Below, in pieces: positions 31,438-49,888 of a DNA stretch of 54,785 bases. Numbering within the stretch: the stretch's first letter is position 1; each line of letters begins with the position of its first letter. The DNA is taken from contig JBAXQK010000006.1 of the NCBI GenBank assembly GCA_037131775.1, forward strand, positions 1-54,785, in the 5' to 3' direction. The notes beneath the pieces are model-generated. The model was given only the letters and a program-made list of their open reading frames with translations. It made no database searches and was not told the DNA's origin. A program made the translations under genes and the position numbers. The DNA is from Candidatus Uhrbacteria bacterium (GTDB lineage: Bacteria; Patescibacteriota; Patescibacteriia; UBA9934; GWF2-40-263).

Positions 31438-32114
31438 ACGCGAGTGATCAGCTTATCCTTGAGAATGTCCTTCACGATCGCGAACGCGCGCATCGACGAC
31501 GGACTCTTCGCGAGCGTCTCGGCGGAATAGACGATCGTCACCGGGCGCTCGACATACCGGAGCCTCTTCACGACGATCAGGTCCTGAATCTGCGACGCGT
31601 GCGCCATGCCGTCGAGCGTAATCGTGATCTCCTGCGCGGCCTTGCGCGACAGGGCGCGGAACCCGCAGTGCGTGTCGGTCAGTCGAATCCCCGAGATGGC
31701 GACGGTAAACCATTGGGCGAGACGATTGACGACGCGGCGCGCCACCGGCATGTTCGACTTCTTTCCGAGGAAACGCGAACCGAGAACCACCTCCGCGGCG
31801 CCGGTCTGGATCGGCTCGACCATCGCCGGGATGTCGCATCCCTGCATCTGCCCGTCCGCGTCGAAGTGAACGACGATCTCCGCGCCCAGCCGGTTCAGCG
31901 CGTACTCCGTCGCCGTCTGCAACGCCGCTCCCTGCCCACGGTTGATCACGTGACGAAGGACGGTCGCCCCGGCGGATCGGGCCGCGTTCGCGGTATTGTC
32001 GCGCGAACAGTCGTCTACCACCACGACGCCGCTTACAAACGAAGAAGCATCGCGCACGACGGCGGCGATGCGCGATTCCTCGTTAAACGCTGGGATGATG
32101 GCGATAGTTCGCAT
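31434..32114 (-). CDS. Glycosyltransferase family 2 (polyprenol-phosphate glycosyltransferase/DPM synthase-like)
   Basis: IIPAFNE, VVDDCSRD, NRGQGAA, HFDADGQ, GSRF, DTHCGFRA; ATG 32114. Confidence 0.9.
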   Translation of the reverse strand: MRTIAIIPAFNEESRIAAVVRDASSFVSGVVVVDDCSRDNTANAARSAGATVLRHVINRGQGAALQTATEYALNRLGAEIVVHFDADGQMQGCDIPAMVEPIQTGAAEVVLGSRFLGKKSNMPVARRVVNRLAQWFTVAISGIRLTDTHCGFRALSRKAAQEITITLDGMAHASQIQDLIVVKRLRYVERPVTIVYSAETLAKSPSSMRAFAIVKDILKDKLITRV

Positions 32115-32115
32115 A

Positions 32116-32194
32116 GGAGTGATGAAGTCGTGGAGTGATGAAGTCGTGAGGTTTAAAGCACTCCATGACTCCATCACTCAATCACTCCACGACT
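32116..32194. repeat. Octamer-built imperfect inverted repeat filling the intergenic gap
   Basis: (GGAGTGATGAAGTCGT)x2 at 32116-32147 versus CACTCCAT-GACTCCAT-CACTCAAT-CACTCCAC-GACT at 32159-32194. Confidence 0.75.
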
Positions 32195-33209
32195 ATAACG
32201 TGGTCAACAGTATCTTGTTTGCCTTCACATAGTCAATCGTATGGCGCAGGCCGTCCTCAAGGCGGACGAGCGGGAGCCAGCCGAGCTCCTTTGCTCGCGC
32301 GCAACGCGGCAACGCAAGCTCGGAGAGGAACATGAGCGGCGCGGCGTGGCGGACGCCGACCTTCGTGCCGACGATCTTCAGGATGATCTCCGCGACGTCC
32401 GCGATGTCGTGGTCCACGTCGCTGCCAAGGTTCACGAGCCACTGGTCGGTCGGCGCCTTCATCAGGCGAACGAGGCCGTCCACGCAGTCGGTGACGTACA
32501 GGAGCGACGTATGGAACGGCTTGCCGCCGTACACGACGATGTCCTGCCCGTCGATGGCTGAAAGCACGAAGTCGGGAATCAGCTGGCCGTCTCCGAGCGG
32601 CATGCGCGGGCCGTACGTCCGGAAGATGCGCGCGATCTTCACCTCGAGCGCGTGCACCTGGCGGTACGTGGAAAACATCGTCTCCGAGAACCGCTTTCCC
32701 TCGTCGTAGCACCCGCGCGGCGACAGGTGGTCGTTGCCCGCGCCGACGTATTCCTCCGCCACGAACGGGTTCGCCTTGTCGCGCGTTCCGTAAACGACCG
32801 CGCTCGACGCGAACAGGATCCGCGCGCGATACTTTCGCGCCAGTTCAAGCACGCGATAGTTGCCCGTCGAGTTGGCAAGCAGCGTCTGGATCTTGTACTG
32901 GTCGAAGTCCTTCACCGAGGTCGGACAGGCAAGGTGATAGATCTCCTGGATCCCCTGGAATGGCAGCTTGAACACCGCGAGCTCCGCGTAGTTCTCCAAG
33001 TCGATCGGATCGTTGATATCGAGGCGTAGGAACTGAAAGTTGGAGTTCGGCAACAGCGAGTCGATGTTGTGCACGTTCCCCGTCGACAGGTTGTCGACGC
33101 AGATCACGCGATTCCCTTCGCGAATGAGCCGCTCGCACAAATGCGACCCAATGAACCCGGCCCCGCCGGTAACGAGAATGTTTTTCTTTTCGAATGTGAT
33201 GTCAGCCAT
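32193..33209 (-). CDS. NAD-dependent epimerase/dehydratase, UDP-glucuronate decarboxylase (UXS)-like
   Basis: TGGAGFIGSHL, IYHLACP, CYDEGKR, RIF.TYGPRM. Confidence 0.82.
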   Translation of the reverse strand: MADITFEKKNILVTGGAGFIGSHLCERLIREGNRVICVDNLSTGNVHNIDSLLPNSNFQFLRLDINDPIDLENYAELAVFKLPFQGIQEIYHLACPTSVKDFDQYKIQTLLANSTGNYRVLELARKYRARILFASSAVVYGTRDKANPFVAEEYVGAGNDHLSPRGCYDEGKRFSETMFSTYRQVHALEVKIARIFRTYGPRMPLGDGQLIPDFVLSAIDGQDIVVYGGKPFHTSLLYVTDCVDGLVRLMKAPTDQWLVNLGSDVDHDIADVAEIILKIVGTKVGVRHAAPLMFLSELALPRCARAKELGWLPLVRLEDGLRHTIDYVKANKILLTTL

Positions 33210-33303: not shown

Positions 33304-35451
33304 TTATAGCGACCATCCAGCAACGCTCAGCCCGCGACGATCCGCCTGGTCTCCCGCGAAGAACCCGCCGAGGACCTTGCCCGTCAGGTCGAACGCGCGA
33401 ATCTGCGGGCCGCCTCCCGGACCAGGGGCCGTGACGATCTGCGCGACGCCTCCATCAAGGTTTGCAACGCTGACGCGAACGCCGCCGCGGAACAGGGAGT
33501 CGTAGGCGAAGAATGATCCCACGACCCTGCCCGTCTCCGTAAAGACGCGAACCTGGGGGCCGCCTCCCGCGTCGGTTCCCGTGACGATCTCGTCGATGCC
33601 GTCGCCATTGAGGTCGCCAGCCGAGACGTAGACGCCGCTGACGTACGTCGGCGCGTACGCGTCGAACTTCGCAAGGACGGTGCCGATCGTCGCCCCGGTC
33701 GCGGACAACACGCGGACCTCGGGACCGAATCCCGCGCCGCGCGACGCGATGATCTCGTTGTTGCCATCGCCGTCCACGTCGCCGGTCGCGACGCGGATCG
33801 AGGGAACCAGACCCGGACCACCCCCAACCCCTCCTTGACGAAGGAGGGGAGACGAAATGAGAAACGGATTCATCTCGGAAACCTGCGCTCCATCCATCAT
33901 GAACGTGCGAATCCTGCCCTGGCCCTTCGCGTCCTCGCTCACGACGATTTCCTCCGTGCCGTCGCCGTTCACGTCGCCGGTCGCGACGTTCAATCCGGTG
34001 CGACTCGCCGTCTCAAACGCAAAGAACTGCGACTTGAATTTCCCGTCCATCCCGAACACGCGAACCTGCGGCCCGCCGCCGGGAGCAGGGACGGTCACGA
34101 TGTCGTCCTTCCCGTCGCCGTCGACGTCCCCCACCGCCACGCGGACGCCGCCGAGAAAGGTCGGGGCGTACGCGTCGAATTGGGTGACGAGCGCCCCGTC
34201 ACGCGTGAAGACGCGGACAGTCGGCGGGAGACCGGGGGTCGCGGTAGCTGTGACAATGTCGTGGCTTGGAGTCGCTGTTGGTCGCGACGTTTTTCCACTC
34301 GTCCCCCCTCCTTCGTCAAGGAGGGGTTGGGGGTGGTCCGAGGCCGCCGCCGCGAACGACGGGGCGATTTGCATGGCGCGGCCGATATTCAACCGGCCCG
34401 GACCGAGCTTGCCGACCGCGTCGGTCCCCTTCTCCCTCAGCGGATCGACGGAGAGCTGGAGAATGGTTCGGATAAGCGACGGAGTGAGCGACGGGTACGC
34501 GGACTTCAAAAGCGCGACGGCTCCCGCGACGATTGGCGACGCGACCGACGTTCCGTCCCATCCGCCCTCGTAGTATGATGGAAAATCGATCCACGCGTCG
34601 TTCTGGTACATCGTCCCAAACACGTCCACGCCCGGTGCGGAAATGTCCGTGCAGTTTGATCCGTAGTTTGAAAAATCCGCCTTCGTATCCTCCTCCGTCG
34701 TCGCCGCGACCCCAATGACCCAGTCGTCGCCCCCCTCGCCAAAGCACACCGGGTATACCGGCGTATCATCGAGGTTCAGTCCCCCGTGGTTGTCGTTCCC
34801 CACTGCCGCGACCACGGAGACGCCCGCGTCAAACGCGTTATGGATATCGCTCTGAAGCGCCTTGTCCGCATCGAACCCGGTAAACGACAGGTTGATCACG
34901 TTCGCGCCATTTTTGACGGCGTACGCGATCGCCTCGCGTGCCTTCCCCGAGTCGCCCGAACCATAGTCGTCCAGAATCCGAAGCGGCATAATCCGCGTCT
35001 GCCAAGAGACGCCCGCGACCCCTTCGCCGTTGTTCCCCACCGCGCCGATGACTCCCGCCACGATCGTCCCATGCGCCACGCCGTCCACGGTGGACGCGTC
35101 GCTCACGTCCGGCTCCGGCGTATCGTCACCGTCCACGAAATCCCAGCCGTGCACGTCGTCGACGTACCCGTTCCCGTCGTCGTCGATCCCGTTTCCCGCG
35201 ATCTCCCCGGGGTTCGTCCAGATGTTTCCCGTGAGATCGGGATGATCCGGGTCCACGCCCGAATCAAGCACGGCCACGACGGTCTGCTGCGTCCCGATCC
35301 CAATGTCCCACGCCGCCGGCGCGCCGATCTTGTCGAGATACCACTGCTTGCTATAAAGCGGATCGTTCGGCACGCGCGCAAAGACGGGAGCGCAAACGAA
35401 AAGACCGAGCAGAACGGTCGCAACGATTCTACGCGGTCTTTGGTTTGTCAT
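33304..35451 (-). CDS. Secreted S8 (subtilisin-like) serine peptidase with C-terminal FG-GAP-like repeats
   Basis: Signal peptide; VAVLDSG, HGTIVAG, GTSVASP catalytic triad; repeated F.AY...F.GGV.VA.GD..GDG..EI..G.G.GGGPQVRVF. Confidence 0.9.
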   Translation of the reverse strand: MTNQRPRRIVATVLLGLFVCAPVFARVPNDPLYSKQWYLDKIGAPAAWDIGIGTQQTVVAVLDSGVDPDHPDLTGNIWTNPGEIAGNGIDDDGNGYVDDVHGWDFVDGDDTPEPDVSDASTVDGVAHGTIVAGVIGAVGNNGEGVAGVSWQTRIMPLRILDDYGSGDSGKAREAIAYAVKNGANVINLSFTGFDADKALQSDIHNAFDAGVSVVAAVGNDNHGGLNLDDTPVYPVCFGEGGDDWVIGVAATTEEDTKADFSNYGSNCTDISAPGVDVFGTMYQNDAWIDFPSYYEGGWDGTSVASPIVAGAVALLKSAYPSLTPSLIRTILQLSVDPLREKGTDAVGKLGPGRLNIGRAMQIAPSFAAAASDHPQPLLDEGGGTSGKTSRPTATPSHDIVTATATPGLPPTVRVFTRDGALVTQFDAYAPTFLGGVRVAVGDVDGDGKDDIVTVPAPGGGPQVRVFGMDGKFKSQFFAFETASRTGLNVATGDVNGDGTEEIVVSEDAKGQGRIRTFMMDGAQVSEMNPFLISSPLLRQGGVGGGPGLVPSIRVATGDVDGDGNNEIIASRGAGFGPEVRVLSATGATIGTVLAKFDAYAPTYVSGVYVSAGDLNGDGIDEIVTGTDAGGGPQVRVFTETGRVVGSFFAYDSLFRGGVRVSVANLDGGVAQIVTAPGPGGGPQIRAFDLTGKVLGGFFAGDQADRRGLSVAGWSL
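33815..33854 (+). repeat. ~40-bp palindromic element, copy D (in frame inside S8 gene)
   Basis: GGACCACCCCCAACCCCTCCT-TGACGA-AGGAGGGGAGACG; translated as SPLLRQGGVGGGP. Confidence 0.85.
34300..34339 (-). repeat. ~40-bp palindromic element, copy E (in frame inside S8 gene, opposite orientation to D)
   Basis: Reverse complement GGACCACCCCCAACCCCTCCTTGACGAAGGAGGGGGGACG (39/40 to D); translated as DHPQPLLDEGGGT in the protease/FG-GAP linker. Confidence 0.85.
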
Positions 35452-35503
35452 AACGTGCCATTTTGCAGAACACACCCCGTCATTGCGAGCTCCTCAGGCG
35501 GAA

Positions 35504-42349: not shown

Positions 42350-42432
42350 TTAGGCATAAGGCTGAAAGGCTTTAGGCTTAAGGGTCTACGGAAAATTCCT
42401 TTAGCCTTATGCCTTTCAGCCTTTAGCCTAAA
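42350..42432. repeat. Heptamer-built (T/GA/TAGGC core) imperfect inverted repeat, gene-less relative of the four-helix-bundle flanks
   Basis: TTAGGCATAAGGCTGAAAGGCTTTAGGCTTAAGG...CCTTTAGCCTTATGCCTTTCAGCCTTTAGCCTAA; shares TAAGGCTGAAAGGC with 47957-47988. Confidence 0.8.
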
Positions 42433-42440
42433 CCTCGCCT

Positions 42441-42734
42441 ATGCCCATCACTTCCATCATTCGTCTCTCCGTATCCGAGGCCGCCCGAATGTTTGGCGTG
42501 TCCCAGCGAACGATCCGCCGCGCGGTGGCCGATGGACAAATTACCTATGTCGTGGTCCAAGGAAGGTATAAGCTGAACTTTGAGAGCCTGCTCAAGTGGT
42601 CACAGGATACCACGACCGTCCGCAACAAGCGCGACAAAACGGGGATCGGCCAGTACGTGAACCAGTGGCGCATAAAGAACAAGCTGTTCTCCCCGAATCC
42701 GAAGTCAATTGAGGAAGCTGATAAGATCACATGA
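42441..42734 (+). CDS. Excisionase-family helix-turn-helix DNA-binding protein
   Basis: LSVSEAARMFGVSQRTIRRAV.DG.I...GRYKL HTH_17-like pattern. Confidence 0.8.
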   Translation: MPITSIIRLSVSEAARMFGVSQRTIRRAVADGQITYVVVQGRYKLNFESLLKWSQDTTTVRNKRDKTGIGQYVNQWRIKNKLFSPNPKSIEEADKIT

Positions 42735-44719
42735 AAGAGGCAAGATTCAAGAAACAAGAACCAATGAAATTTCAAACTTCAATCTTGAAAGTTTCAGGTT
42801 TTGGATTTTCAGTTTTCTTTGTTTCTTGTCTCTTGTTTCTTGCATCTTTCCCCACTGCCCTTGCGGCGAACGGCGACTTTGTGCGGACGTCGAACTATTA
42901 CCTGATGTCCGGATCCGCGCTGGAGAGCCAGGCGACCATCGCGACGCTATCTTCCTTCGACCTGATCGTCATCCCATCCGAGGCCCAAGTATACAACAAG
43001 CCGTTTTTTTCCGCCGTGCGAAAACTGAACCCCGACATCATCATCCTCGCGTACGTCCCGACCGTCTCGTGGAACAACGCCTTCTGGTCCGATCCGCTCC
43101 ACGCGCAGATGAAGCGCGGGATCCGTCCCGACTGGTGGCTGAAGGACGCGAACGGCGGGCGCGTTTCCATCTGGCCGAACACGACCGCGCTCGACCTGAA
43201 CTCGGGATGGACGGACTATCTTGCCGGGTTCGTGAAGTCGAGCGTGATGGACACGGGACTCTGGGATGGAATCTTTTACGACGAGGTGCAGGACCGCGAC
43301 GACTGGAAGAGCGGATACGCGCATCTCCTGGCCGTGACGCGATCGAAGCTTGGCAGCTCCGCGGTGATCGTCACGAACGGATCGTCCTCGGCGTCGTTCA
43401 CGCCGTACGTCAACGGCCGCATGTTCGAGACCTTCCCTTCCGCCGGCGATCCGACCTCCTCATGGACGTCGCAGGCAAAGGACTACCTTTCCCTCTCGTC
43501 GAAGGTCGGCCACGACGCGGTCATCGCCGTGAACGTGAACACGGACAATACGGGCGCGCAGACCAACTACCAGAAGATGCGCTTCGGGCTCGCCACGACG
43601 CTGCTTGGAGACGGGTACTTCGGCTACGACTTCGGCACGCAGAACCACGCGCAGCTCTGGACGTACGACGAGTACTCCGCGTCGCTCGGCGCGCCGAAGG
43701 GATCCGCGGAACAGACGTCGAACGTCTGGAAGCGCGAATACGAGCAGGGCGAGACCGTCGTCAACCCGACGAACGTCCCCCAGACCGTGAGGCTCGACGG
43801 CGAATACGAGAAGCTTCGCGGAACCCAGGATCCCGCGACAAACAACGGATCGATCGTCTCCAAGCTCACGCTCGCGCCGCAGGACGGAATCCTTCTCCTC
43901 CGGCCGCTCGAGACGATCGTCGACGCGACTTATCTCAACGGTTCATTCGCCCACGTCTTCTCCGCGACCGGCGCGACGAAGCGCAACGGGTTCTTCGCCT
44001 ACGAGCGCAAAGCGAAGGGCGGGACGCAGGTGAATTCCTACGACCTCGACGGCGACGGGAGGAACGAGACCGTCGTGGCGGACAGCACGTACGTCACGAT
44101 CTATAACGCCGACGGCACGGTCCATGCCAAGTTCGCGCCGTACACGGAATCGTTCAAGCTCGGCATCAACCTCGCGATCGGCGACCTCGAGCACGACGGG
44201 TCCGTCGAGATCGTGACGGGGACGGAGAATGGCGGCGGCCCCCAGATTCGGATCTTCAACAAAAACGGAAATCTGATCAACCCGGGGTTCTTCGCCTACG
44301 ACACGGCGTTCCGCGGCGGCGTAAACGTGGCCATCGGCGATTTGAACGGCGACCGCGTGGACGAGATCATCGCCGGCGCCGGAGTTGGAGGAGGGCCGCA
44401 GGTGCGCGTGTTCAACAAGGCGGGCAGGCTCATCAACCCCGGATTCTTCGCCTACGATCCCGCCTTCCGGGGCGGCGTGAACGTGGCGGTCGGCGACGTG
44501 GACGGAGACGGAATCGGCGATATCATCGCGGGGGCTGGAAAGGGGGGAAGCCCGGAAATTCGCACGTTCGACCGCGATGGGAAGAAGAAGGCGGACTTCT
44601 TCGCCGCGGACGCAAGCGAGCGCAACGGCGTCGAAGTCACCGCCGCGGACATCGACAAGGACGGCAGGGCGGAAATCATCGGGCTGTCGAGCGACGTGTT
44701 TACGATGTCATTCAACTGA
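42731..44719 (+). CDS. Secreted putative glycoside hydrolase (TIM-barrel) with C-terminal FG-GAP-like repeats
   Basis: Signal peptide; RKLNPDIIILAY, WDGIFYD, NGRMFE motifs; C-terminal repeats GFFAYD.AFRGGVNVA.GD..GD...EII.G.G.GGGPQVRVF. Confidence 0.75.
   Translation: MKEARFKKQEPMKFQTSILKVSGFGFSVFFVSCLLFLASFPTALAANGDFVRTSNYYLMSGSALESQATIATLSSFDLIVIPSEAQVYNKPFFSAVRKLNPDIIILAYVPTVSWNNAFWSDPLHAQMKRGIRPDWWLKDANGGRVSIWPNTTALDLNSGWTDYLAGFVKSSVMDTGLWDGIFYDEVQDRDDWKSGYAHLLAVTRSKLGSSAVIVTNGSSSASFTPYVNGRMFETFPSAGDPTSSWTSQAKDYLSLSSKVGHDAVIAVNVNTDNTGAQTNYQKMRFGLATTLLGDGYFGYDFGTQNHAQLWTYDEYSASLGAPKGSAEQTSNVWKREYEQGETVVNPTNVPQTVRLDGEYEKLRGTQDPATNNGSIVSKLTLAPQDGILLLRPLETIVDATYLNGSFAHVFSATGATKRNGFFAYERKAKGGTQVNSYDLDGDGRNETVVADSTYVTIYNADGTVHAKFAPYTESFKLGINLAIGDLEHDGSVEIVTGTENGGGPQIRIFNKNGNLINPGFFAYDTAFRGGVNVAIGDLNGDRVDEIIAGAGVGGGPQVRVFNKAGRLINPGFFAYDPAFRGGVNVAVGDVDGDGIGDIIAGAGKGGSPEIRTFDRDGKKKADFFAADASERNGVEVTAADIDKDGRAEIIGLSSDVFTMSFN
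42734..42849. repeat. Heptamer-built (CAAGAAA) imperfect inverted repeat encoding the signal peptide region
   Basis: 42734-42769 versus reverse complement of 42814-42849: 30/36 matches by manual alignment. Confidence 0.75.
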
Positions 44720-46508: not shown

Positions 46509-46539
46509 AAAGTCCCCGCCACGAAGTGGCGGGGACTTT
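46509..46539. terminator. Bidirectional terminator
   Basis: AAAGTCCCCGCCAC-GAA-GTGGCGGGGACTTT between convergent genes. Confidence 0.75.
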
Positions 46540-46706: not shown

Positions 46707-47954
46707 CTAGACGGACGCCAAGCGCATGGCAAGCGCGTCCTCGTACGCCTTCAGGACCCGCGCGTGATGGTTCTTGACATGAAACGTCGTTTCGGCCGCC
46801 AATCGGGCATTTCTCGCCAGTCCGAGGCGAAAATCCTCGTCGAAGGCCAGCCGCATGACCGCCTCGACCCAGCCGTGCAGGTCGTTCGGGGCCACGAGGA
46901 GGCCCGTGACGCGATCCTCCACGACCTCTGGCATTCCGCCAACGCTGCTGCCGATGACCGGCTTGCCGTGGACCATCGCCTCGAGCGTGATGAGCGGGAA
47001 GATCTCGTGGACGCGGCTCGGCGCGAGGACGGCCATGGCGCCGGCGTACAGCTCGGCAAGCAGCTCGCCCGAGCGGAACCCGACGAACTCGATGTTCGGC
47101 GACCCGTGCGCGAGCGCGTGAAGTCGGTCTTCCTCGGGCCCGGTGCCGACGATCTTGAACGGGACGTCGGGCAGCTGGCGCGCAATTTGGATGACCGTCT
47201 CGACCCCCTTCTCCTCCGAGAGGCGGCCGACGTACAGCATGTAGCCCTTGTGTCCGTAGGACGGCGCCACGGACGACGGGTCCGCCCCATAGTGGTTCGT
47301 CCGGAGCTTCGCCTCGGGAAACCCGGCGGCAATCATTTTTCGGCGGATATAGTCGGACGGGCACAGGAAGATGTCGACGGCATTGCGATAGGATCCGCGG
47401 TTGTAGTGGAACTTGAAGGCGGCGACCTGCGCGAACGATGCGGCGTAGGAATTCTTGTGGAAGCGGGAGAGCGTACCCGCGATGATTCCCGTCGACATGC
47501 CAACGCTCGGAACGGACGCGACGGGACCGCAGCCGGCGGCCCAGACGTTGTACTGCGGGGAGATCAGGTGGTGATCGTGCACGGTCATCACGACGGGGAC
47601 GCGGCGGGACTTGAGCGCGCCGAGGATCGACGGGGACAGCTGGGTGTAGATGTTGTGGACGTGCGCGATATCGGGGCGCTTGGCGTCGACGAGCTGAGAC
47701 ATCTTTTGCCTCGCCTCCGACGAGAAGAACATTCGGAGAAACGTCTTCGCGCCCGCGAGGTTCAAGCGGACGTTTTCCGTCGCGACGAACGAGGGAAAGA
47801 ACTGCGAGGTCGTCGCAGGGAGATTTTGCGGGTGCTGCATCGCGAAGGGAAGAATCTCGTGGCCTTGCGATTCAAGCCAAGCGGAAAGATCGAGCATATA
47901 CCGCTCGGCCCCGCCCTTCAGGAAGTAAAATTTATTGGCTTGGATGATTCGCAT
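46707..47954 (-). CDS. Glycosyltransferase family 4
   Basis: KGGAERY, HVHNIY, MTVHD, YVGRLSEEKG, EIFPLITLEAM. Confidence 0.9.
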   Translation of the reverse strand: MRIIQANKFYFLKGGAERYMLDLSAWLESQGHEILPFAMQHPQNLPATTSQFFPSFVATENVRLNLAGAKTFLRMFFSSEARQKMSQLVDAKRPDIAHVHNIYTQLSPSILGALKSRRVPVVMTVHDHHLISPQYNVWAAGCGPVASVPSVGMSTGIIAGTLSRFHKNSYAASFAQVAAFKFHYNRGSYRNAVDIFLCPSDYIRRKMIAAGFPEAKLRTNHYGADPSSVAPSYGHKGYMLYVGRLSEEKGVETVIQIARQLPDVPFKIVGTGPEEDRLHALAHGSPNIEFVGFRSGELLAELYAGAMAVLAPSRVHEIFPLITLEAMVHGKPVIGSSVGGMPEVVEDRVTGLLVAPNDLHGWVEAVMRLAFDEDFRLGLARNARLAAETTFHVKNHHARVLKAYEDALAMRLASV

Positions 47955-47956
47955 AG

Positions 47957-48405
47957 GGGCTTAAGGCTGAAAGGCGTAAGGCTTAAGGGATTACGATTTT
48001 ACGGGTTCCGTCTCGAGTCGATTAGAGATCAGGGTAAATAATAATCGTAGGGCTTCGTCCAGCAACTGCTCGCAAAGCAAAAAGTCCAGATGCCTGGTCG
48101 GTCGGATTTTCTTTGCGATAAATATTTGCGTCTGCAATTCGGCGGCTGACGCAAGTGCGATGTCCAGGAATCGCCGAAATTCGCGTTCTGATCCGCGCAT
48201 CTTTCCTTCCGCAATGTTTGAAGGGATGGAAACGGCGGAACGTCTCATTTGAGAGACGAGACCGTATTTTTCATTATCTGGAAAACTGGCGGTAACTTCA
48301 TAAATAGCAACAACCAAGTCCATCCCACGCTGCCACGCGATCAAATCCTGAAAACTTCTTGCCATACGCTTATCCTTAAGCCTTACGCCTTTCAGCCTTA
48401 AGCCC
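47957..48405. mobile_element. Inverted-repeat-bounded four-helix-bundle cassette (putative mobile/intervening element)
   Basis: Perfect 32-bp IR GGGCTTAAGGCTGAAAGGCGTAAGGCTTAAGG at 47957-47988 and its reverse complement at 48374-48405 enclosing one low-GC gene. Confidence 0.65.
47991..48365 (-). CDS. Four helix bundle protein (23S rRNA intervening-sequence protein family, TIGR02436-like)
   Basis: SFQDLIAWQRGMDLVVAIYEVTASFPDNEKYGLVSQMRRSAVSIPSNIAEG...F.RFL.IA..SAAELQTQ; ATG 48365. Confidence 0.93.
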   Translation of the reverse strand: MARSFQDLIAWQRGMDLVVAIYEVTASFPDNEKYGLVSQMRRSAVSIPSNIAEGKMRGSEREFRRFLDIALASAAELQTQIFIAKKIRPTRHLDFLLCEQLLDEALRLLFTLISNRLETEPVKS

Positions 48406-49839
48406 ATCTTCTCCAAGAACCACCACGAACCCCGCGTACATCCAGACGTAGAACGCCAGCGTTCGGATCTCGAAGACCGTCGAGAGGAACGCGTTCATCG
48501 CGACTCCGAGCATTGCCGCCGCGACGCCGATCGAAAGCGCCCGCGTGAACGGATCACTGCTTCGACGATAGACGCGGACGCAGTGTACGATCAGGCCGAG
48601 GTACATCCATAGGAAGAAGAAGATCCCGAGACAGCCCGTCTCGCCCCAGAGCGAGAACCAGTTGTTGTCGATGATCCCGTCGGTACCGAAGACGCCGAAC
48701 GGAAGGCCGAGCTGCTCGTACACCTTCGTATTGCCGAGCGCTACCACTGCTCCCCCGCCAAACTGGCCCGGGCCGAAGCCGAACAGCGGCGACGCGGCCA
48801 CGACGGTGAGCGGGGTCTGGACCATCCAGTAGACGCGGCCCAGGCCGTAGTATTCCCCGCGCCAGCGGGCATAGCTGAACGTCTCGTAGAATCGCTCCAC
48901 GAGCGTCTGTCCCGGAGCCTCGGTGATATAGCGGACGTTCAAGCCGGTGATGCCGACGTAGGCGACGACCGCGACGACGACGGTTATCGCGGCGAGCATG
49001 ACGCGGCGGTCGCGCTTGATCCAGACGGCGACGAAGAGAAACGCGAGAAGGAACGCGAACCAGGAGGCGCGGGAGTAAGTAAGGACGAGTGTCGGGATGG
49101 CAACGGCGAAGAGCGCGATGATCTCCGCGCGCCAGGAAGATCCTCTCTCCAAGATTGGCGCGGACCCTCGACGCTTGAAGAAGAACTCATACGCGAACCC
49201 GACCGCAAGAGCGAGGAAAAAATAGAGAAAATTCCCCAGCCGGTCATACCTTCCAAGCGTCGCGAACACGCGCGATCCCGGCTCCCAGAACTCGTCGACC
49301 CCGCCGGTAAGCGTCACCTCGCCGAGCGAATGCGCGTCGGACGGGAGAAGCGTCGCGTCGAGCGACCCGCCGGAAAGCGACTGGACGATGCCGAGGACGG
49401 ACTCGAGCCCGACGACCGCTAACAACGCGAGGGTGAGGTTTCGCACGTAGTCGCGGCTTGGCTTCAGCTGGACGGCGACGAAGAACACGAGGATGAACCG
49501 GATGATCTGCCGCGTTCCGAGAATCGCAACGGTCGGCGAGACGGCGTTGATGGCGACCGAGGCCAGGAGGATGACGAGAAAGAGGATGAACGGAAGGTCG
49601 GCCCGCGTCGACTGGAGGCGGATCGCCCCGGTGAGCGCGCGCCAGATGACGACCGCGGCGAGGACATAGATGAGGCCCTCGGAAAAAAACCGCGCGTAGA
49701 CGTACATCTCGTCGGGCGCGAGCTTGAGGAAAACGGACTCGAACGGGAGGTAGAGGGCGAGGATCGCGAGGGTGGTCAGCGGACGGAAACAGGTAAGGAT
49801 AAGAAATCCGAGGGCCGCAATGAGAAATAGCACGAACAT
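48376..49839 (-). CDS. O-antigen ligase (Wzy_C)-like polytopic membrane protein
   Basis: RVFATLG, TYSRASW, PLFGFGPGQF, IDNNW..LWGETG..G motifs; ~12 TM; last codons and stop lie within the right inverted repeat. Confidence 0.82.
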   Translation of the reverse strand: MFVLFLIAALGFLILTCFRPLTTLAILALYLPFESVFLKLAPDEMYVYARFFSEGLIYVLAAVVIWRALTGAIRLQSTRADLPFILFLVILLASVAINAVSPTVAILGTRQIIRFILVFFVAVQLKPSRDYVRNLTLALLAVVGLESVLGIVQSLSGGSLDATLLPSDAHSLGEVTLTGGVDEFWEPGSRVFATLGRYDRLGNFLYFFLALAVGFAYEFFFKRRGSAPILERGSSWRAEIIALFAVAIPTLVLTYSRASWFAFLLAFLFVAVWIKRDRRVMLAAITVVVAVVAYVGITGLNVRYITEAPGQTLVERFYETFSYARWRGEYYGLGRVYWMVQTPLTVVAASPLFGFGPGQFGGGAVVALGNTKVYEQLGLPFGVFGTDGIIDNNWFSLWGETGCLGIFFFLWMYLGLIVHCVRVYRRSSDPFTRALSIGVAAAMLGVAMNAFLSTVFEIRTLAFYVWMYAGFVVVLGEDGLKAERRKA

Positions 49840-49855
49840 ACGGAAACAGTATAAC

Positions 49856-49888
49856 AAAAAACCGGCCGATGCGCTGGTGGGCGCAGGG
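49856..49888 (-). terminator. Intrinsic terminator after MopE-repeat gene 1
   Basis: Minus strand CCGGCC-CTGCGC-CCACCA-GCGCAT-CGGCCGG-TTTTTT. Confidence 0.6.

Follow-up and report, generated by a model that had tools for sequence, protein, structure and literature searches.

A four-helix-bundle gene between inverted heptamer arrays at an operon junction: a candidate exchangeable cassette of intervening-sequence type in Candidatus Uhrbacteria

Introduction

Genes of the family PF05635/TIGR02436 encode four-helix-bundle (4HB) proteins and have been annotated variously as "S23 ribosomal protein", "IVS protein", "four helix bundle protein" or cas-associated protein. The family is very large, and to our knowledge it has no known function; a pentamer form of the four-helix-bundle protein has reportedly been found. 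Here, we describe one such gene in a stretch of DNA from Candidatus Uhrbacteria bacterium (GenBank assembly GCA_037131775.1, contig JBAXQK010000006.1, positions 1 to 54,785 of the forward strand), which we refer to at its full length of 54,785 nucleotides as the window. The gene and the two inverted arms that enclose it, together called the cassette, lie at positions 47957 to 48405, at the junction between an O-antigen ligase gene and a GT4 glycosyltransferase gene.

The closest described systems are known to us from passages of the papers cited here. In Coxiella, an intervening sequence (IVS) of the 23S rRNA is excised by RNase III, and tandem heptamers (GACAGAT) in variable number precede the start of its S23p gene (PMC4990558). 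Open reading frames (ORFs) of the 23S_rRNA_IVP type also occur in insertions within the 16S and 23S genes of bacteria of the candidate phyla radiation (PMC11270868). PF05635 is reported to be the commonest Pfam family beside the reverse transcriptases of diversity-generating retroelements (DGRs) and to resemble Avd (PMC10053308), and 23S_rRNA_IVP genes inside cas loci were read as a functional association (PMC3936711). Heptamer arrays have been described before start codons (PMC4679880), and 70–75 convergent GGGAATC pairs in Xanthomonas (PMC4692102). A sequence-only reading of the window, which a model made from the letters and a list of their ORFs, had stated that the family occurs in 23S IVSs and is related to Avd, and on both points this literature agrees.

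Results

A single gene between perfect arms, from stop codon to start codon

The inverted repeat consists of two arms of 32 nt, which are 100% complementary and separated by 385 nt. Between them lies one gene only. In the order of transcription, the features of the locus are the following.

48376 to 49857, minus strand: upstream gene, Wzy_C (O-antigen ligase family), 493 aa; Wzy_C E 1.4e-11; C-terminal tail encoded by the arm
48374 to 48405, minus strand: 5' arm in the gene direction, reading GGGCTTAAGGCTGAAAGGCGTAAGGCTTAAGG; units of about 7 nt (CNNAAGG), one of them an 8-mer
47991 to 48365, minus strand: four-helix-bundle gene, 124 aa, matching the PF05635 and TIGR02436 profiles; closest solved relative XCC0516 (2GSC)
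47957 to 47988, minus strand: 3' arm, exact reverse complement of the 5' arm; its outer CCC forms part of the start context CCCCTATG
46707 to 47954, minus strand: downstream gene, GT4 glycosyltransferase, 415 aa; Glycos_transf_1 E 2e-31, Glyco_transf_4 E 2e-18

All three genes are on the minus strand. The ligase stop codon (TAA, 48378-48376) lies inside the first arm, which also encodes the last codons of the ligase. The ATG of the 4HB gene (48365-48363) follows 8 nt past this arm, its stop codon (47993-47991) lies 2 nt ahead of the second arm, and the ATG of the GT4 gene (47954-47952) is found 2 nt past the second arm. In 200-nt windows, the GC content is 0.455–0.505 over the cassette and 0.61–0.69 in the flanks. 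These coordinates bear out what the sequence-only reading had claimed for the locus: a perfect 32-bp inverted repeat around this gene alone with spacings of 2 and 8 nt, one arm that supplies the end of the ligase gene and another that ends 2 nt before the GT4 start, and a dip in GC content. Its statement that there is no transposase and no clear target duplication likewise agrees with what is read in the cassette and beside the arms.

The predicted fold of a 481-nt RNA covering the cassette has a free energy of −176.8 kcal/mol, compared to −135.3 ± 6.4 kcal/mol in 100 shuffles (z −6.5, 0/100 as good), and in this fold the 32-bp stem closes the whole 4HB gene. On the minus strand, the cassette shows no promoter-like site, while the GT4 gene is followed by a terminator-like hairpin (46509-46539); thus ligase, 4HB and GT4 genes look like one transcription unit.

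The 124-aa protein matches PF05635 with an E value of 3.2e-34 and 117.8 bits (cut-off 33.8) and TIGR02436 with 111.7 bits (cut-off 24), and its best match among solved structures is XCC0516 (2GSC chain A, E 2.2e-23). Residues R41, R42, S46, N50, E53 and G54 are invariant in an alignment of five paralogs, and the protein thus carries the family motif GxxRxxxSxxxNxxE as given in a passage of PMC3936711. By homology to Avd, the protein may bind nucleic acids. The phage collection that we searched contained no match to it.

The source genome (G000) comprises 1.19 Mb in 44 contigs, of which the window is contig C6. Its 23S gene is found at C4:49305-52371, while the cassette lies between two protein genes and so is not inside the 23S rRNA gene. 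No PF05635 match was found in the 23S genes of G000 and four relatives, and an Rfam scan of the window and four small low-GC contigs gave no match.

The gene-in-hairpin layout is general across the family

To the sequence-only reading, flanking inverted repeats built of 7–8-nt units should be a trait of the family at large. We examined 110 loci: 80 from a collection with one genome per species (Patescibacteria, Acidobacteriota, Planctomycetota, Bacteroidota, Clostridia, Proteobacteria and others) and 30 from relatives of G000, drawn from 41 genomes, 34 of which have the family. Using tblastn, 109 gene copies were located in 105 of the 110 loci; an ORF could be called for 107, and the flanks were long enough in 101. 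For each, the 170 nt upstream were aligned against the reverse complement of the 220 nt downstream, and as a control the alignment was repeated on 583 windows with identical geometry that had been shifted along these loci. An arm score of at least 30 was reached by 68 of 101 loci and by 2 of 583 shifted windows. At a threshold of 24, the counts were 86/101 and 11/583. The loci scoring at least 30 comprised 47 of the 75 from many phyla and 21 of the 26 from relatives. The layout is therefore general across the PF05635 family and across many phyla, as had been expected.

The layout was also found in cultured cyanobacteria, in finished plasmid sequences, where both arms are present in three of five loci and an array is present on one side only in the other two. 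Since these are finished plasmids of cultured strains, the layout is not an artefact of metagenome bins. The three loci with both arms are the following.

Nostoc punctiforme PCC 73102, plasmid pNPUN02: units GTCAGGA
Picosynechococcus PCC 7003, between cas10/cmr2 and cmr3: units GGAGATA
Nostoc edaphicum, between nrd genes: units TAGGGAG

Properties of the arms were measured on the 68 loci that reached a score of 30 or more. The arms have a median length of 33 nt and a maximum of 142 nt, and a self-period of 7 fits best in 52 of these loci, for each arm, compared to 26 of 340 random segments. When the units are rotated into register, they share the core n-Y-T-A-G-T-n, which has 4.39 bits, whereas 20 nulls with shuffled letters gave no more than 3.60. 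The first arm contains more G than C in 58/68 loci. It has stop codons in all three frames in 31/68 loci and in 2/340 controls, as must result when a unit containing a stop recurs at a spacing not divisible by 3. The idea that the hairpin is oriented towards the gene downstream was considered and withdrawn: an inverted repeat reads alike on both strands, and a G-rich first arm is thus a property of the hairpin, not a gene-directed polarity.

The arms are placed at gene boundaries. At 55 of the 68 loci, an upstream open frame of at least 100 codons on the same strand stops at the arm, compared to 60 of 680 random positions, and the proposal that the element sits at stop/start junctions therefore holds well beyond the window. 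On the other side, an ORF of at least 100 aa starts −15 to +20 nt from the second arm in 46/68 loci, for which the control is weak (272/680).

Mismatches within the arms show no wobble asymmetry, with 70 G:T and T:G mismatches and 77 A:C and C:A mismatches. Protein clade and unit sequence are weakly correlated (Mantel r 0.106), and of 33 pairs whose proteins are 60% or more identical, only 3 have arm 6-mers in common. The two had been predicted to vary together; they do so weakly, which weighs against a strict recognition of units by the protein.

Paralogous cassettes and cargo-less hairpins in the source genome

Searches with tblastn and the Pfam model revealed eight PF05635 matches in G000. 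Six of these have inverted arrays of about 7-nt units, each with different units, and their proteins are 30–47% identical; the five paralogs that were aligned share 30–45% identity with P0001. The six cassettes are listed below, with neighbouring genes other than the window's named by reading their translations, without a search.

Contig C6 (window), between ligase and GT4: units CNNAAGG
Between ybaB and recR: units GTGAGTA
Before lexA: units GGAGTGA
Between rpiB and rpe: units GGGCGCAT
Between an RNase J-like gene and trpS: units GGGRTCRAAGG
Contig C38: units of AAGAGGCAAGATTCAAG type

The weak match C26:7356-7637 is armless and adjoins a reverse transcriptase gene. This gene is one of two RVT_1 matches in G000 (C2:150228-150836 and C26:6482-7087), and it may form a DGR-type pair with the weak PF05635 match.

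A scan of G000 for inverted repeats with periodic arms returned 22, among which cargo-less hairpins outnumber cassettes. The solo hairpins belong to a few unit families that are common to the cassettes, and the family of each cassette has several solo members. Three such hairpins lie in the window.

42350 to 42431: cargo-less hairpin with units GGCATAAGG, CTGAAAGG, CTTTAGG and CTTAAGG (CNNAAGG family) and a 14-nt loop; z −6.5
32116 to 32195: cargo-less hairpin of the GGAGTGA family; z −5.0
42731 to 42851: hairpin with CAAGAAA-type units, the family of the contig C38 cassette; z −4.8

The "empty derivatives" that had been pointed out at these places from the letters are thus real by their folds. 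The first ends 9 nt ahead of the ATG of a 97-aa HTH_17 gene (42441-42734), and the second, on the minus strand, separates the stop codon of an epimerase gene (32193-33209) from an ATG at 32114-32112. The second arm of the third codes for the start of a GHL15/FG-GAP protein (42764-44719), a hydrophobic stretch that resembles a signal peptide, and repeat sequence appears to have been taken into the coding region there.

The CNNAAGG family has six solo hairpins in G000, that at 42350-42431 among them. On contig C18, a solo hairpin between a stop codon and the GTG of a dnaX-like gene has an arm that matches the window's cassette arm at 31 of 32 positions. The other families with solo members are GGAGTGA, GTGAGTA and CAAGAAA, and the orphan unit family GAGTCGTT has three hairpins and no cassette in the assembled genome. 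A relationship of one paralog to one unit family is therefore borne out in part, as this orphan family has no cassette and the C19 and C26 copies are armless. Hairpins of the GGAGTGA family also flank rplJ (L10), upstream of rplL (C33:1700-2420, L140), inside a highly expressed ribosomal-protein operon. Matches to the arms only were found in unrelated contigs of three public metagenome runs. One contig, joining 47989 to 48374 through 13 letters, was considered as an excised form and rejected as another locus, because the 13 letters are the reverse-complemented loop of the solo hairpin C2:147497-147574.

Gain, loss and replacement at orthologous junctions

The gene order ligase-GT4 is kept in the loci of 18 relatives. 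Five of these junctions contain 4HB cassettes, which belong to two lineages or more, two hold a DUF559 gene, and the remaining eleven measure −14 to 116 nt. In G003, the GT4 protein is 97% identical to that of the window, yet the 4HB protein is 56% identical and the arm units are different. The likeness between G000 and G003 stops at the ligase residues VVLGE and returns at the ATG of GT4; thus the exchanged unit comprises the arms plus the gene. In G004, where GT4 is 73% and 4HB 65% identical, the units are related. A contig from another lake metagenome, with flanks about 93% identical, has 485 other letters in place of 47956-48407, that is, of arms and gene.

The two DUF559 genes, of about 130 aa, stand between palindromic arms in G006 (L117) and G001 (L118), with Pfam E values of 3e-34 and 4e-37. 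They take the very place that the 4HB cassette has in G000, and the ligase-GT4 junction is thus a hot spot for small cassettes of more than one type. The junction of G005 (L120), 26 nt long and "empty", contains AAGGCCGTGGGCCT, which resembles collapsed AAGGCCGCGAGG / CCTCGCGGCCT arms of G004; from this likeness, it may be the scar of a cassette loss.

The second junction is that of ybaB and recR, which is tight or overlapping (−1 to 9 nt; ATGTGA, TAATG etc.) in 21 of 30 loci. Tight junctions are found in G003 and G006, whose RecR proteins are 95–97% identical to that of G000, and the cassette of G000 at this place is therefore a recent gain. The same place is occupied in G015 by an unrelated 4HB cassette and in G022 by a heptamer hairpin without cargo. 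A comparison of L146 with L147 and L148 showed that the empty ybaB-recR junction of close relatives reads ATGTGAGAC, while the units of G000 there are GTGAGTA. The shared GTGAG may reflect chance, a target preference, or units seeded from the target.

Orthologous junctions without the cassette thus exist at both places, and the element is not simply conserved by vertical descent. The outcome that the sequence-only reading had named as its refutation, vertical conservation with no empty sites and no repeats around homologous genes, is not what the junctions and loci examined here look like.

A possible second element family, of palindromes

Another inverted repeat in the window is of a different kind. 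Its 53-nt arms (33814-33866 and 34288-34340, 91% complementary) lie in frame within a 723-aa subtilase/FG-GAP ORF (33304-35475, minus strand). The arms are in turn small palindromes (CCCCTCCTT..AAGGAGGGG), whose core occurs 16 and 14 times in G000. Palindromes of this kind also flank the DUF559 genes at the ligase-GT4 junctions of G006 and G001 and at C2:133237-133554 of G000. By sequence, these palindromes look like a second element family, similar to repetitive extragenic palindromic (REP) sequences and tied to DUF559.

Discussion

We estimate a probability of roughly 0.6 that the feature is an exchangeable cassette of IVS type, in which a PF05635 gene between inverted arrays of about 7-nt units forms a self-insulating stem-loop in mRNA and which would, by analogy, correspond in mRNA to the 23S rRNA intervening sequences that carry an ORF. 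The parts of this reading that we observe directly are the anatomy and how general it is, the period of 7, the three-frame stops, the junction position, the gain, loss and replacement, and the shared unit families.

The mechanism that we propose has five steps. Having no promoter-like site of its own, the cassette would be read through from the promoter of the ligase-GT4 operon. The G-rich, C-poor and stop-rich first arm would end upstream translation in any frame, and at this locus it provides the ligase stop. The arms would then pair as a 32-bp RNA stem, looping the gene out and bringing the upstream stop beside the downstream start. A stem of this length would be a substrate of RNase III, for which G000 has a gene (C12:13242-13637), and the cut would yield an upstream mRNA, a 4HB mRNA and a downstream mRNA with a short leader. 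Since cleavage would separate the three mRNAs, an insertion would cost the host operon (or rRNA) little. Finally, the gene with its arms is gained, lost and replaced at junctions, by some presumed means of movement, and the cargo-less hairpins of the same unit families would be derivatives of cassettes or landing sites for them.

Several points weigh against this reading. Among sequencing runs, none of RNA was found to contain this stretch, and formation and cutting of the stem in vivo are predictions from sequence. No direct repeat adjoins the arms and no target duplication is visible, and no transposase or recombinase was seen in or near the cassette, although no genome-wide transposase search was made. 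Replacement at the same site could also come about by homologous recombination through the flanking genes, with no part played by the element itself. The six cassettes differ in their units and in their proteins, and the genome thus bears no trace of recent transposition. The paralog C19:2813-3124 is armless, lies beside a tRNA and has a terminator-like hairpin of its own. Among the analysable loci, 33 of 101 score below 30, and the 30 loci from relatives are kin and not independent, with L086 being the C19 copy of G000 itself. In two cyanobacterial loci, the 4HB gene is antisense to both neighbours, and therefore read-through of an operon cannot express it there.

The best surviving alternative, which we consider possible but doubtful, is that the hairpins came first. 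They would be intercistronic RNA elements of the host, serving as signals for processing, stability or translation directly before start codons, and the 4HB gene would be a passenger that survives in their loops, or would encode a trans-acting binder within its own target. The system would then be regulatory and not mobile. This would fit the excess of cargo-less hairpins among the 22 in G000, the several solo members in each cassette's unit family and the solo hairpins before housekeeping genes, such as the dnaX-like gene and rplJ/rplL. It would also fit the start codons of this genome, which are not enriched in Shine-Dalgarno sequences: in a gene set obtained with a crude ORF filter, these were found at 34 of 158 unambiguous starts against a background of 19%. 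By the same crude filter, T is found at −1 in 80% of starts and C in about 40% at each of −2 to −4, giving the context CCCTATG, into which the second arm of the cassette runs. Examples of this context in the window are 47950-47957, 32110-32117 and 42436-42443. In other genomes, heptamer arrays directly upstream of starts have been considered as possible post-transcriptional sites (passages of PMC4679880). However, close relatives with the same genes alternate between hairpin and no hairpin, unlike a conserved regulatory site; the units vary between sites and between genomes, with protein clade predicting the unit weakly; and the three GAGTCGTT hairpins have no cassette.

It is unlikely that the element acts at the level of DNA, with the arms as DNA hairpins or cruciforms and the RNA stem incidental. 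The arms might then be recombination or insertion sites, similar to those of transposable elements of the miniature inverted-repeat kind (MITEs), REPs or attC, or products of replication slippage or template switching. As the mismatches lack a wobble bias, homogenization of DNA explains the complementarity of the arms equally well, and it would lead one to expect the 32/32 match seen here. The arm-only matches in unrelated metagenome contigs and a read depth of 54–65 at the arms, compared to 13–22 beside them, point in the same direction. So do the restriction-endonuclease-like DUF559 genes between palindromic arms, found at the same junction in other species and, at C2:133237-133554, in G000 itself. 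Among published repeats, heptamers are the most over-represented tandem repeats of bacteria, for which polymerase slippage was proposed, and the GGGAATC pairs of Xanthomonas are convergent (passages of PMC4679880 and PMC4692102, respectively). On the other hand, no recombinase, transposase or target duplication accompanies the cassette, the stop-rich, G-first design and the exact fit from stop to start are left unexplained, and for the family's rRNA members processing takes place on the RNA (a passage of PMC4990558).

Chance or an assembly artefact is highly improbable: unitigs of the public run do break at the 32-nt arms, but contigs of run X1 span each arm with its neighbours as in the window, the architecture recurs in finished plasmids of cultured strains, and the scores are far above those of shuffles and shifted controls.

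Beyond the cassette reading, a wider system may be considered, which we regard as speculative and improbable as a whole. The 4HB protein and the heptamer hairpins might form a transposase-less system in which each 4HB lineage serves its own hairpin family, with one protein-coding "master" copy and many cargo-less copies at stop/start junctions. The protein might mobilise its hairpins, possibly through the excised stem-loop RNA and the reverse transcriptases of the cell, by analogy with Avd in DGRs; alternatively, it might gate translation and the cuts made by RNase III at dozens of junctions within operons. If so, the 23S IVSs, the arrays of short tandemly repeated repetitive (STRR) sequences of cyanobacteria and the 4HB genes of cas operons would be faces of one element.

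If the cassette reading is generally true, a 4HB gene found in a CRISPR, nrd or glycosylation operon is uninformative about those pathways, the IVS of rRNA is one special case of a broader element, and the bacterial excess of heptamer tandem repeats, long unexplained, gains a concrete partner. The layout would also be a natural design for placing a gene in an operon with little polar effect. The cultured cyanobacteria with the same layout make the idea directly testable.

The window's cassette had been put forward as an undescribed system. ORF-bearing IVSs and the heptamers of Coxiella are published, and that part of the claim does not stand. In full-text literature, with subscription journals largely outside it and without supplements, we found no paper linking PF05635 genes generally to flanking inverted heptamer arrays; by term search, "23S" and "four helix" are absent from the text of PMC4679880, and "23S" and "intervening" from that of PMC4692102. 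What is new here, as far as the literature searched goes, is the general association of PF05635 genes with inverted heptamer arrays at stop/start junctions.

Compared with the systems described in passages of the papers cited, the cassette is most readily set beside the 23S rRNA IVSs of Coxiella burnetii, Leptospira and others. Like these, it has a PF05635 ("S23p") ORF in the loop, complementary ends that form a long stem (here a predicted one of 32 bp) and a GC content below that of the host; unlike them, it lies outside the rRNA gene, in a glycosylation operon and exactly between a stop and a start. With Avd of the diversity-generating retroelements it shares a homologous four-helix-bundle family, while the window's contig has no RVT_1 match and only the weak, armless C26:7356-7637 adjoins one. 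MITEs and REPs are likewise short inverted-repeat elements with cargo-less copies at dispersed intergenic sites, and integron gene cassettes are promoter-less single-gene units exchanged at a fixed position. Unlike in all of these, no transposase, RAYT, integrase, target duplication or attC-like single site is seen at the cassette, the repeats bracket the gene, and the tandem units differ from copy to copy. Finally, the arms share with the published tandem heptanucleotide repeats (cyanobacterial STRR, TAACTGA, GGGAATC of Xanthomonas) their head-to-tail 7-nt units, intergenic location, variable number and frequent position directly upstream of starts, and cyanobacterial 4HB loci carry such arrays; unlike the published repeats, the arrays described here are inverted pairs that enclose a gene.

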